NCBI GenBank assembly: GCA_012178725.1
Contig: GCA_012178725.1_3030.1
Length of the DNA: 64,000 nucleotides
Origin: a phage
Direction: 5' to 3' (one strand)
The translations under genes were made by a program, and so were the position numbers. A model generated the notes under the pieces. The model made no database searches and was not told the DNA's origin. It was given only the letters and a program-made list of their open reading frames with translations. Every line of letters starts with the position of its first letter. Within the stretch, counting starts at the first letter, position 1. This document shows positions 5,001 through 33,987 of the stretch, piece by piece.

Positions 5001-5027
5001 GGGAGCCTTCGGGTTCCCTTTTTCTTT
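5001..5027 (+). terminator. Intrinsic terminator after gene 35 (UUCG-loop hairpin plus T-run)
   Basis: gggagcc-ttcg-ggttccc followed by ttttttcttt, 6 nt after the gene 35 stop. Confidence 0.7.
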
Positions 5028-5034
5028 ATAAATA
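5027..5034 (+). promoter_or_regulatory. T4-type late promoter (TATAAATA) for genes 36-37-38
   Basis: Exact TATAAATA about 24 nt upstream of the gene 36 ATG. Confidence 0.7.
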
Positions 5035-5743: not shown

Positions 5744-8700
5744 ATGGCTACTTTAAAACAAATACAATTTAAAAGAAGCAAAACTGCAGGAGCACGTCCT
5801 GCCGCTTCAGTATTAGCCGAAGGTGAATTGGCTATAAACTTAAAAGACCGTGTACTTTTTACTAAAGATGACCAAGGAAATATTATTGATCTGGGTTTTG
5901 CTAAAGGCGGTAGTATTGACGGGAATGTTATTCATACAGGCAATTATAACCAAACTGGCGATTATACTTTAAATGGCGTCTTCACTCAGACTGGTAATTT
6001 TAATTTAACTGGTATTGCTCGAGTAACTCGCGATATTATTGCCGCTGGGCAGATTATGACTGAAGGCGGAGAACTTATTACAAAAAGTTCAGGTACAGCG
6101 CATGTTCGTTTTTTCGATGGCAATAGTCGCGAACGTGGAATCATTTATGCCCCGGCTAATGACGGTTTAACTACACAAGTACTTAATATCAGGGTTCAAG
6201 ACTATGCCGCTGGCAGCGAAAGCACTTATGCATTTTCAGGCAGTGGCCTATTTACTTCACCTGAAGTATCAGCATGGAAATCTATTTCGTCTCCACAAAT
6301 TCTGACCAACAAAGTCATTACTAATAATAAATCTACGGGTGATTATGACATCTATTCGATGGCAGACAATGTTCCATTGTCTGAAAGCACTACTGCTATT
6401 AATCATCTTCGTGTCATGCGTAATGCCGTTGGTTCTGGTATTTTCCATGAAGTTAAAGATAATGATGGAATAACTTGGTATGCAGGTGATGGACTTGACA
6501 CCTATCTTTGGTCATTTACTTGGAGCGGCGGAATTAAATCAAGTCACTCAATTTCTATTGGTTTAACATCTGGTAGTAAAGATTATTCAATATTAGGACC
6601 ATCTAGTATTGCTTTAGGAGATAATGATACTGGATTTAAATGGCATCAAGATGGATATTATTTTAGCGTTAATAATGGAACAAAAACGTTTTTATTTAGT
6701 CCTAGCGAAACAACTAGCCTAAGAAAATTTGTAGCTGGATATTCTACTAACGGAACCGATTTAACTACTCCTCCAACTGAAAATTATGCTCTTGCTACTG
6801 TCGTGACATATCACGATAATAACGCGTTTGGAGATGGTCAGACTCTTTTAGGATATTATCAAGGCGGTAACTATCATCACTATTTCCGCGGCAAGGGTAC
6901 TACAAACATTAATACTCACGGCGGTTTGTTAGTTACTCCTGGTAATATTGACGTTATTGGTGGTTCTGTTAATATTGATGGTAGAAATAATGCTTCTACA
7001 CTGTTGTTTAGAGGTAACACAACTGGTAGTAGTTCAGTTGATAATATGACAATTTCCGTTTGGGGCAATACGTTTACTAATCCTAGTGAAGGCACCCGTA
7101 AAAATGTCATGGAAATTTCTGACGCAACTAGCTGGATGAGTTATATTCAAAGACTTACTACTGGTGAAGTAGAAATGAACGTTAACGGTTCATTTGAATC
7201 ATCCGGTGTTACTGCTGGAAATAGAGGAGTTCACACAACAGGCGAAATTTCATCTGGAGCAGTGAATGCTCTTCGCATTTGGAATGCAGATTATGGAGCT
7301 ATTTTTAGACGTTCAGAAGGTAGTCTTCATATTATTCCAACTGCTTATGGTGAAGGCAAAAATGGTGATATCGGTCCACTTCGTCCATTTAGTATTGCTT
7401 TGGATACTGGTAAGGTTGTTATTCCAGATTTAGAATCAAGTTATAACACGTTTGCTGCAAATGGCTACATTAAATTTGCTGGTCATGGCGCTGGCGCTGG
7501 TGGTTATGATATTCAGTATTCACAAGCTGCTCCTATTTTCCAAGAAATTGATGACGACGCTGTAAGCAAATATTATCCTATTGTTAAACAGAAGTTTCTA
7601 AACGGTAAATCCGTTTGGTCTTTAGGTACTGAAATTAATTCGGGTACATTCGTTATTCATCATCTGAAAGAAGATGGATCGCAGGGCCATACATCTCGTT
7701 TTAATCAAGACGGTACTGTTAACTTCCCGGATAACGTTCAGGTCGGCGGCGGTGAAGCTACTATTGCTCGTAATGGTAACATCTGGTCTGATATCTGGAA
7801 AACGTTTACTTCAGCAGGCGACGTAACTAATATTCGCGATGCTATTGCTACTCGCGTTGCCAAAGAAGGCGACACGATGACCGGCACTCTTTGGATTAAT
7901 AAAGATGCCGCTGGAATAGTTCTTAATCCTCCTTTGACCAGTGATTCATCATTTATTCGTTCTGATACGGCCGGGGCCAATAATTGGTATATTGGTAAAG
8001 GCGGTGCCGACAATGGTCTAGGTTTTTACAGTTACATTACACAAGGCGGTGTATACATAACAAATACCGGTGAAATATCGCTTTCTCCTCAAGGACAAGG
8101 AACATTTAATTTTAATAGAGACCGCCTTTATATAAATGCTAGTCAATGGGTTGCACATAAATCTGGCGCTTGGGGCGACCAATGGGGCTTAGAAGCTCCT
8201 GTATTTGTGGATTTTGGTAGTGTCAGTAATGACTGCTATTATCCTATTATTAAAGGAAAATCTGGTATTACTAACGAAGGATATTTTTCCGGCGTAGATT
8301 TTGGTATGCGACGCATTACTAATACATGGGCACAAGGTATTATTCGTGTAGGTAATCAGGAAAACGGTTCAGACCCACAAGCCATCTATGAATTCCACAG
8401 TAACGGTACTTTTTATGCCCCTAGCCTACTTAAGAGCAACAGAGTATCAGCAGGTGGCGGTGACCCTGTATGGGCCGGGCCATGTATTGTTCTTGGCGAT
8501 AATGACACAGGTCTAGTTTGGGAAGCAGATGGTATTTTCAACGCATATGCAAACGGCCAAGGTGTATTCAGTTTTAGAGCTGGTCTCGCACAAACATTCG
8601 GTAACGTAGCGTTAAACGTTAACGCAGGTATGTATGTTCGTGATAACATTGATGTTAACGACGTTTATATCCGTTCTGATATTCGTTGTAAGTCAGAAAT

Positions 8701-8995
8701 TAAGCTTATTAAGAACGCTCAAGAGAAATCTAAACTCTTAGGCGGCTATACTTATCTGCTTAAAAACTCTGTTACAGACGAAGTTAAACCATCTGCAGGT
8801 TTAATTGCTCAGGAAGTTCAAGAAGTATTGCCTGAACTTGTTTCTGAAGATAAAGAGACCGGACTGCTTCGTTTGAACTATAACGGTATTATCGGTTTAA
8901 ATACTGCTACAATCAACGAGCATACAGATGAAATCAAGGAATTGAAATCTGAAATTGCCGAATTGAAAGCATTAATTAAATCATTGATAAAATAA
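5744..8995 (+). CDS. 37: Long tail fiber distal subunit gp37 with C-terminal intramolecular chaperone domain
   Basis: 1083-aa ORF in the gene 37 position; last ~106 aa carry an SDxRxK autocleavage motif and a coiled-coil tail. Confidence 0.93.
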   Translation: MATLKQIQFKRSKTAGARPAASVLAEGELAINLKDRVLFTKDDQGNIIDLGFAKGGSIDGNVIHTGNYNQTGDYTLNGVFTQTGNFNLTGIARVTRDIIAAGQIMTEGGELITKSSGTAHVRFFDGNSRERGIIYAPANDGLTTQVLNIRVQDYAAGSESTYAFSGSGLFTSPEVSAWKSISSPQILTNKVITNNKSTGDYDIYSMADNVPLSESTTAINHLRVMRNAVGSGIFHEVKDNDGITWYAGDGLDTYLWSFTWSGGIKSSHSISIGLTSGSKDYSILGPSSIALGDNDTGFKWHQDGYYFSVNNGTKTFLFSPSETTSLRKFVAGYSTNGTDLTTPPTENYALATVVTYHDNNAFGDGQTLLGYYQGGNYHHYFRGKGTTNINTHGGLLVTPGNIDVIGGSVNIDGRNNASTLLFRGNTTGSSSVDNMTISVWGNTFTNPSEGTRKNVMEISDATSWMSYIQRLTTGEVEMNVNGSFESSGVTAGNRGVHTTGEISSGAVNALRIWNADYGAIFRRSEGSLHIIPTAYGEGKNGDIGPLRPFSIALDTGKVVIPDLESSYNTFAANGYIKFAGHGAGAGGYDIQYSQAAPIFQEIDDDAVSKYYPIVKQKFLNGKSVWSLGTEINSGTFVIHHLKEDGSQGHTSRFNQDGTVNFPDNVQVGGGEATIARNGNIWSDIWKTFTSAGDVTNIRDAIATRVAKEGDTMTGTLWINKDAAGIVLNPPLTSDSSFIRSDTAGANNWYIGKGGADNGLGFYSYITQGGVYITNTGEISLSPQGQGTFNFNRDRLYINASQWVAHKSGAWGDQWGLEAPVFVDFGSVSNDCYYPIIKGKSGITNEGYFSGVDFGMRRITNTWAQGIIRVGNQENGSDPQAIYEFHSNGTFYAPSLLKSNRVSAGGGDPVWAGPCIVLGDNDTGLVWEADGIFNAYANGQGVFSFRAGLAQTFGNVALNVNAGMYVRDNIDVNDVYIRSDIRCKSEIKLIKNAQEKSKLLGGYTYLLKNSVTDEVKPSAGLIAQEVQEVLPELVSEDKETGLLRLNYNGIIGLNTATINEHTDEIKELKSEIAELKALIKSLIK

Positions 8996-9000
8996 TAAAA

Positions 9001-9014
9001 GGGCCTTCGGGCCC
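9001..9014 (+). promoter_or_regulatory. GC hairpin with UUCG loop between genes 37 and 38
   Basis: gggcc-ttcg-ggccc directly followed by the GGAGG ribosome-binding site and ATG of gene 38. Confidence 0.5.
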
Positions 9015-9025
9015 TGGAGGTTTTT

Positions 9026-9805
9026 ATGGCAGTAGTAGGAATTCCTGGTTGGATTGGGACTTCAGCCGTCGCTGAAACAGGCCAGCGCTGGATGTCAGCG
9101 GCCTCTAGAGAATTGCGTCTAGGGAACCCATCTTGGATGTCACAATTCGCTGGACGCTCAAGAGAAATTATTCACACGCTTGGAGCAGACCATAACTTCA
9201 ATGGTCAATGGTTTCGTGACCGTTGTTTTGAAGCCGGCGGTGCTCCTATAGTGTTTAATATCACAGGCAACTTAGTATCATATTCTAAAGACGTTCCTTT
9301 ATTCTTCATGTATGGTGATACTCCTAACGAATATGTTACTTTGAATATTCATGGTGGTGTTCATATGTGGGGCCGAGGTGGTAATGGTAGCGTAAATGGA
9401 AGCCCAGGCACTAATGGTGGCGACGTAATCCAAAATGATATTGGTGGACGACTTCGTATTTGGAACTATGGCGTTATTGCATCAGGCGGCGGCGGTGGTG
9501 GTGCAGTGTCATTACAGAATAGCTGGGCACCAAATGCTACAGCAGGTGGCGGTGGTGGTAGACCGTTTGGCATCGGCGGAGGCGGCGTTAATTGGCCGGG
9601 TGGTAATGCTAGTTATGACGCGCCTGGCGGTGCCGGTTACACTTCCCAATTCGGCGGAGGCAATGGCGGTGATGCTGGAGGTCGGGGTGGAGATGGATGG
9701 GGTAATCACTTATCTAGATCCGGCGGTGGTGCTCCAGGTAGAGCGGTATTCGGTTCTTCACCATCATGGGGTGCAACAGGCACGATCTACGGTTCCTGGA
9801 TTTAA
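9026..9805 (+). CDS. 38: Tail fiber adhesin gp38, T2-type with glycine-rich motifs
   Basis: 259-aa ORF with several poly-Gly runs ([20 protein letters not shown]); T4 gp38 is a shorter chaperone without these. Confidence 0.85.
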
Positions 9806-9824
9806 ATGGTAATACCTCTCAGCA

Positions 9825-9832
9825 TATAAATA
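9825..9832 (+). promoter_or_regulatory. T4-type late promoter (TATAAATA) for holin gene t
   Basis: Exact TATAAATA about 19 nt upstream of the t ATG, followed by AAAGGAGGG. Confidence 0.7.
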
Positions 9833-9850
9833 TCCTTAAAAGGAGGGTCT

Positions 9851-10507
9851 ATGGCAGCACCTAGAATATCATTTTCGCCCTCTGATATTCTATTTGGTGT
9901 TCTAGATCGCTTGTTCAAAGATAACGCTACCGGGAAAGTTCTTGCTTCCCGGGTAGCTGTCGTAATTCTTTTATTTATGATGGCGATTGTTTGGTATAGG
10001 GGAGATAGTTTCTTTGAGTACTATAAGCAATCAAAGTATGAAACATACAGTGAAATTATTGAAAAGGAAAGAAATGCACGCTTTGAATCTGTCGCCCTGG
10101 AACAACTCCAGATAGTTCACATATCATCTGAGGCAGACTTTAGTGCGGTGTATTCTTTCCGCCCTAAAAACTTAAACTATTTTGTTGATATTATAGCATA
10201 CGAAGGAAGATTACCTTCAACAATAACTGAAAAATCACTTGGAGGATATCCTGTTGATAAAACTATGGATGAATATGCAGTTCATTTAAATGGACGTCAT
10301 TATTATTCTGACTCAAAATTTGCTTTTTTACCAACTAAAAAGCCTACTCCCGAAATAAACTACATGTACAGTTGTCCATATTTTAATTTGGATAATATCT
10401 ATGCTGGAACAATAACCATGTACTGGTATAGAAATGATCATATAAGTAATGACCGCCTTGAATCAATATGTGCTCAGGCGGCCAGAATATTAGGAAGGGC
10501 TAAATAA
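9851..10507 (+). CDS. t: Holin
   Basis: 218-aa ORF matching T4 holin T in length and sequence as recalled; hydrophobic segment near N-terminus. Confidence 0.93.
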   Translation: MAAPRISFSPSDILFGVLDRLFKDNATGKVLASRVAVVILLFMMAIVWYRGDSFFEYYKQSKYETYSEIIEKERNARFESVALEQLQIVHISSEADFSAVYSFRPKNLNYFVDIIAYEGRLPSTITEKSLGGYPVDKTMDEYAVHLNGRHYYSDSKFAFLPTKKPTPEINYMYSCPYFNLDNIYAGTITMYWYRNDHISNDRLESICAQAARILGRAK

Positions 10508-33979: not shown

Positions 33980-33987
33980 TATTTATA
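33980..33987 (-). promoter_or_regulatory. Late promoter (TATAAATA) for soc
   Basis: Exact TATAAATA on the - strand about 30 nt upstream of the soc ATG. Confidence 0.7.

Follow-up and report, generated by a model that had tools for sequence, protein, structure and literature searches.

According to a note in the T4 RefSeq record, gp38 of the T2 subfamily is unrelated to gp38 of T4 and is itself the adhesin. The question raised by gene 38 in the stretch of 64,000 nucleotides analysed here (hereafter the window) is which of these two proteins it encodes and, if it is an adhesin, which receptor is recognised. The gene lies on the plus strand at 9026..9805, with an ATG start and the stop codon within these coordinates, and its product is a protein of 259 aa. 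It begins 30 nt after the ORF of gene 37 (5744..8995, plus strand), which encodes the distal long-tail-fibre subunit of 1083 aa, the partner carrying gp38, and is covered over its full length by PHROG 1699. It ends 45 nt before a 218-aa ORF, the holin gene t (9851..10507, plus strand). Both neighbours were identified as gp37 and T holin using Pfam and PHROGs, which establishes the gene order 37-38-t in the window.

Gp38 stands out by its glycine content. With 65 of its 259 residues (25.1%), it ranks highest by far among the window's 64 ORFs with a length of 100 aa or more (median 5.2%, 95th percentile 8.3%), an enrichment far above chance for this genome. Glycine accounts for 12% of residues 1-115 and 35% of residues 116-259, with runs of GGGGGG (154-159), GGGGG (174-178), GGGG (184-187), GGG (210-212) and GGG (233-235). 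At the nucleotide level, the 3' half of gene 38 forms the 400-nt stretch with the highest GC content of the 64 kb (0.56, compared to a mean of 0.35 with a standard deviation of 0.036).

Pfam assigned residues 1-42 to Gp38_N (PF21721; E=8e-21, 74.3 bits, cut-off 25) and residues 47-259 to the GP38 adhesin family (PF05268; E=5e-83, 278.7 bits, cut-off 25), the same pair that is found in T2 gp38. In addition, PHROG 2056 ('tail fiber protein; host specificity') covers residues 1-259, and a phmmer search against the PDB retrieved the receptor-binding domain of PP01 gp38 (9v85, E=8e-73) and S16 gp38 in the gp37-gp38 tip complex (6f45_D, E=6e-50), which are its sole relatives among solved structures. 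NCBIfam contains no model for either the T2-type or the T4-type gp38. These matches establish the family membership of the protein and agree with the initial annotation, which had proposed a T2-type receptor adhesin rather than the T4-type chaperone.

If gp38 were a chaperone of the T4 type, it would help gp37 to fold and be absent from the virion, and gp37 itself would bind the receptor. Gene 38 does occupy the same slot as T4 gene 38, and many GenBank records call near-identical proteins 'distal long tail fiber assembly catalyst' or 'long tail fiber assembly chaperone'. However, these labels were inherited from the annotation of T4. Full-length homology to T4 gp38 in a protein devoid of glycine motifs, as would be expected of a T4-type chaperone, was not found: BLASTP between the two proteins gave an E-value of 2.1 and no meaningful alignment, which refutes a T4-type identity at the sequence level. 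T4 gp38 matched neither adhesin family and indeed no Pfam family at all, whereas gp38 of the window matches both. Together with the distinction made in the T4 RefSeq note and a gp37 that ends in a Peptidase_S74 domain as in T2 and S16, not in the Collar/fibre-repeat tip of T4, this makes the chaperone reading extremely improbable. [quoted passage not shown] None of the results speaks against its assignment as an adhesin. The label 'T2-type' stands for the family and can be refined within it, as T2 gp38 itself is just 53% identical. Judged by its sequence, the protein belongs to the nearer, OmpF-specific subgroup of RB51, Bas47, Bas38, fPS-2 and FL33.

The arrangement of gp37 was examined as well. 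Its C-terminal intramolecular chaperone was placed at residues 978-1083 (8675..8992, plus strand), with Pfam Peptidase_S74 at 978-1033, and its last 170 residues align with S16 gp37 (6f45_A, E=8e-31). The Peptidase_S74 domain is present in T2 gp37, while it is missing from T4 gp37, where Collar and Phage_fiber domains are found. By these domains, the gp37-gp38 system corresponds to the T2/S16 arrangement and not to that of T4. A DVYIR^SD motif at residues 973-979 predicts autocleavage after R977, which would release a fragment of 106 residues. In the fPS paper, a cleavage site was proposed for fPS-2 through homology with the S16 site, and the same motif occurs in gp37 of the window.

By homology to S16, PP01 and T2, trimerisation of gp37 would be assisted by the intramolecular chaperone at its C-terminus, which would then cut itself off after R977. 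One gp38 molecule would cap the exposed gp37 tip, inserting W9, W22 and W37 of its N-terminal domain into gp37. The remainder of gp38 would form a beta-helix from which two glycine-rich excursions pack as a lattice of polyglycine-II helices, and five loops at the far end of this lattice would establish the initial, reversible contact to an outer-membrane protein, predicted from the loop sequence to be the porin OmpF. According to the fPS paper, gp38 of T2-like phages is generally viewed as having a dual role as adhesin and chaperone, in which it would be obligatory for the folding of gp37, acting first as its chaperone and then staying attached. Since gp37 of the window has its own intramolecular chaperone, and gene 38 amber mutants of T6 were reported to have a normal virion morphology yet fail to adsorb, we regard such a dual role as improbable and retain the reading of gp38 as an adhesin that caps the tip.

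The architecture of gp38 was examined in an alignment of 61 homologues built from a database search, which was used both for the conservation profile and for AlphaFold2. The resulting model has a mean pLDDT of 85.3, with values below 50 for residues 1-17, which is to be expected if this domain folds against gp37. When the model was compared to the PDB using Foldseek, 9v85 (TM 0.91, target-normalised; rmsd 1.8 Å) and 6f45_D (TM 0.82) were found, and beyond these gp38 structures all matches had an E-value above 2. According to the model, the fold is a beta-helix with a polyglycine-II sandwich. The restriction of the matches to gp38 structures fits the description of the S16 structure, in which the polyglycine-II sandwich was published as a fold lacking other relatives.

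The N-terminal attachment domain spans residues 1-46 (9026..9163, plus strand) and includes Gp38_N (residues 1-42) as well as W9, W22 and W37. These three tryptophans are invariant in alignments with T2, T6, AR1 and S16; according to the description of the S16 structure, three tryptophans anchor S16 gp38 to the tip of the gp37 trimer. Residues 1-61 (9026-9208) alone also match another adhesin family, PHROG 1121. Moreover, the 'gp38' of RB16/Lw1-type phages is 50-59% identical to gp38 of the window over residues 1-64, and the tail-fibre adhesin of Salmonella phage SSU5 matches residues 8-45, indicating a docking module that is common to otherwise unrelated tip proteins. The attachment domain is followed by the first part of the beta-helix domain (residues 47-115; 9164..9370, plus strand), which is modelled as beta strands with a pLDDT above 90 and is 96-100% identical to OmpF-class relatives. 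Next, the polyglycine-II sandwich or specificity region comprises residues 116-238 (9371..9739, plus strand), as delimited by the conservation profile, the loop mapping and the Foldseek match to the receptor-binding domain in 9v85. The protein ends with the C-terminal strands of the beta-helix (residues 239-259; 9740..9802, plus strand), where a conserved end motif and conserved alignment columns are found and where strands are modelled at 239-243, 247-250 and 253-255.

Within the specificity region, the initial annotation had described poly-glycine motifs separating short variable segments. As reported by Trojet et al. (2011), five conserved glycine-rich motifs (GRM) separate hypervariable segments (HVS), and the pattern observed here is this GRM/HVS design. 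The motifs are located at residues 116-121 (GRM1), 154-159 (GRM2), 174-187 (GRM3), 210-222 (GRM4) and 233-238 (GRM5). Across the 61 homologues, the frequency of the top residue amounts to 0.95 for GRGGNG (116-121), 0.99 for GGGGGG (154-159) and 0.84 for GRM3, with a range of 0.66-0.99 over all five motifs, compared to 0.34-0.53 for the segments between them. Carrying the loop definitions of PP01 through the alignment placed the distal loops, by homology, at residues 122-127 (A), 163-172 (B), 186-190 (C), 205-209 (D) and 223-231 (E). The description is therefore well supported, by the invariant motifs and variable loops as well as by a fold that matches gp38 only.

The same G-rich DNA contains two overlapping ORFs, which were previously considered spurious: one of 125 aa on the plus strand (9435..9812), in the +1 frame relative to gene 38, and one of 65 aa in antisense (9512..9709, minus strand). 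Gene 38 was compared by codon position to four relatives of equal length. Compared to NHEP10, the differences are distributed as 9/4/69 over codon positions 1/2/3, corresponding to 72 synonymous and 3 non-synonymous codons, and the DNA is approximately 10% diverged yet the protein is 98.8% identical. This third-position bias together with the high protein identity indicates strong purifying selection on gp38. Both reading frames are intact in the window as well as in the majority of close relatives, as they would be if they were real genes embedded in gene 38. Nevertheless, GGN-rich codons give no stops in those frames, so that open frames are to be expected. The substitutions, including those within the antisense ORF, fall overwhelmingly on third codon positions of gene 38, and this pattern leaves the alternative products less conserved on the same DNA, with 75-83% for the plus-strand ORF and 79-86% for the antisense ORF compared to 96-98% for gp38. 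The plus-strand ORF is furthermore interrupted by a stop in FL33. Based on the substitution pattern, the lower conservation and this stop, embedded genes were rejected and their existence seems hardly credible; both ORFs are best regarded as spurious.

To assign a receptor, the domains of gp38 were compared separately, and the variable segments were mapped against adhesins with known receptors. Over residues 116-259, gp38 is 99% identical to RB51, 97% to Bas47, 97% to fPS-2 and 95% to FL33, all of the OmpF class, compared to 56% for T2 (FadL/OmpF), 53% for AR1 (OmpC), 51% for T6 (Tsx) and 48% for S16 (OmpC). The dependence on OmpF was shown by knockout and complementation for Bas47 (AlbertHofmann), by experiment for FL33, on Yersinia for fPS-2 and fPS-90, and by RB-TnSeq for RB51. 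For RB51, Bas38 and Bas47 it was found in both K-12 and O157:H7. Loops B-E of the window protein are identical to those of RB51, Bas38, Bas46 and Bas47. Its Q208 aligns with Q206 of RB51, which is the OmpF state of a reported OmpF/OmpW switch: according to a preprint, Q206L in RB68 redirects the receptor to OmpW in K-12. When this substitution was sought in the deposited GenBank record of RB68, gp38 was found to be the same as that of RB51 at this position, both with Q, and the OmpW switch thus rests on the preprint's own stock. Based on the 95-99% identity to OmpF adhesins, the E. coli porin OmpF is very likely the receptor, and binding to it would be predicted.

Some doubt follows from the observation that single HVS changes can alter specificity. 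The primary receptor might be another one, e.g., OmpW, OmpC or OmpF plus a second receptor, depending on the host background or on S122 and S126. These two residues of distal loop A are the only ones in residues 47-259 that are shared by no validated OmpF binder, where T and N are found instead, and they occur only in relatives such as NHEP10, for which no experimental receptor data were found. Receptor switches by HVS substitution are known not only from RB68 Q206L but also from SV76 compared to T2 and from PST compared to T6. However, both loop-A changes are conservative (S/T and S/N), and loops B-E with the switch residue are the same as in RB51, Bas38 and Bas47, a clade whose OmpF identity held in K-12 as well as in O157:H7. 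Since adhesin phylogeny also reliably predicts the receptor in the gp38 family, a primary receptor other than OmpF is considered rather unlikely, and OmpF remains the predicted receptor.

Comparison to relatives at the nucleotide level points to a mosaic structure of the fibre-tip locus. Starting at about 9450 and extending through the holin gene, the window hardly differs from RB51, with 2 mismatches in 9450-9871. Going upstream, the number of mismatches rises to 18 in 9300-9449 and then to as many as 71 per 100 nt. On the 5' side of this transition, the nearest relative is Bas47, with 2-11 mismatches per 100 nt. Consequently, gene 38 is Bas47-like over its first 425 nt (about 91-96% nucleotide identity) and RB51-like over its last 355 nt (2 mismatches), and the attachment domain is 98% identical to Bas47 and 54% to RB51. 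A putative recombination junction was placed at 9450..9502 (plus strand), ending at the GGGGGG codons of GRM2 (9485-9502). From these patterns we infer that gene 38 is a natural chimera with its junction beside GRM2.

A second mosaic transition is present in gene 37 around 7540-7850. Residues 1-600 of gp37 are RB51/FL33-like (96-100%), except for a segment around 101-200, where each of the four relatives in the comparison shows an identity of approximately 78%. Over residues 700-1083, gp37 resembles that of Bas47 and NHEP10 (90-98%), with an identity to FL33 of no more than 17-34%. Both the distal portion of gp37 and the attachment domain of gp38 are thus Bas47-like and travel together, as expected of docking surfaces. 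The chimera could be a recent one, in which a part of Bas47 type with the attachment domain, the beta-helix and loop A was joined to a part of RB51 type with loops B-E, S122 and S126 tuning the recognition of OmpF. This is a speculative scenario that we consider unlikely on balance. If S122 and S126 did alter the OmpF alleles or hosts that are recognised, it would represent natural shuffling guided by a glycine motif that tunes the host range within one receptor class. At a larger scale, the backbone of replication genes (20-44 kb of the window) is 97% identical to Tequatrovirus RB18, and Bas47, which is closest to the fibre tip, is a Mosigvirus. This combination of a Tequatrovirus backbone and a Mosigvirus-like tip points to an exchange of tail-fibre modules between genera. 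The combination is already known, as Bas38 from the BASEL collection, also a Tequatrovirus, shows the same.

As for the expression of the locus, the T4 late-promoter motif TATAAATA occurs in 3 copies in the 64 kb, at 5027-5034 (plus strand), 9825-9832 (plus strand) and 33980-33987 (minus strand), compared to approximately 10 expected from shuffled sequences. Two of the three copies are located just 5' of gene 36 (start 5058) and of holin gene t (start 9851), which suggests avoidance of the motif outside genuine late promoters. The copy at 5027..5034 is likely where the late transcript of genes 36-37-38 begins. Between genes 37 and 38, an intercistronic hairpin (AGGGCC-UUCG-GGCCCU; 9000..9015, plus strand) is followed by the Shine-Dalgarno sequence GGAGG (9016-9020). 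With a fold energy of -12.3 kcal/mol, this UUCG hairpin is not significantly better than shuffled sequences (z=-1.44).

NCBI already lists the exact protein of 259 aa under the accession EEY7270235.1 ('receptor-recognizing protein [Escherichia coli]'; contig of 167,174 bp). It is part of a 123-member cluster at 90% that includes gp38 of RB51 and RB68. Homologues were retrieved in 807 phage records, the best of which is 98.8% identical. Gp38 of the window is therefore an ordinary, already known and catalogued textbook T2-type adhesin. Several homologues are filed under bacteria (E. coli, Salmonella enterica and even Bacillus cereus). Their contigs measure approximately 165-171 kb and probably represent phage genomes that were assembled in the course of sequencing bacteria. 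One homologue of 303 aa has Peptidase_S74 fused to GP38, which likely arose when the end of gene 37 was wrongly called together with gene 38 as a single ORF. Proteins that are 94-98.5% identical to gp38 of the window carry the catalyst and chaperone labels mentioned above, which are a T4-derived misannotation of T2-type adhesins. The value of the present assignment lies mostly in correct annotation, as many GenBank records still mislabel this family owing to the T4 gene naming. In addition, a predictable receptor (OmpF) helps the choice of phages for cocktails.

Among the known systems, T4 gp38 shares with gp38 of the window the gene name and the slot between genes 37 and t, but it is a protein of 183 aa with an unrelated sequence that lacks both glycine motifs and Pfam adhesin domains. 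T2 gp38 (FadL/OmpF) has the two Pfam domains, the GRM/HVS layout and a gp37 partner with the S74 chaperone domain in common with it, and differs by an identity of 53% overall and 56% in the specificity domain, with other variable loops. The structurally characterised gp38 proteins of S16 (6f45) and PP01 (9v85), both OmpC binders, share the attachment domain, the beta-helix and the polyglycine-II sandwich. The specificity domains of S16 gp38 and of AR1 gp38, used as a proxy for PP01, are respectively 48% and 53% identical to that of the window, and the distal loops of S16 and PP01 differ from it, consistent with a different porin. The closest system is the OmpF subgroup, i.e. RB51, Bas47 (AlbertHofmann), Bas38 (AugustSocin), fPS-2 and FL33, with proteins of 259 aa (257 aa for RB51), the same gene order 37-38-t, and an identity of 90-98% overall and 95-99% in the specificity domain. 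From this subgroup, gp38 of the window differs by S122 and S126 in loop A instead of T and N, and by the apparently chimeric nature of its gene.
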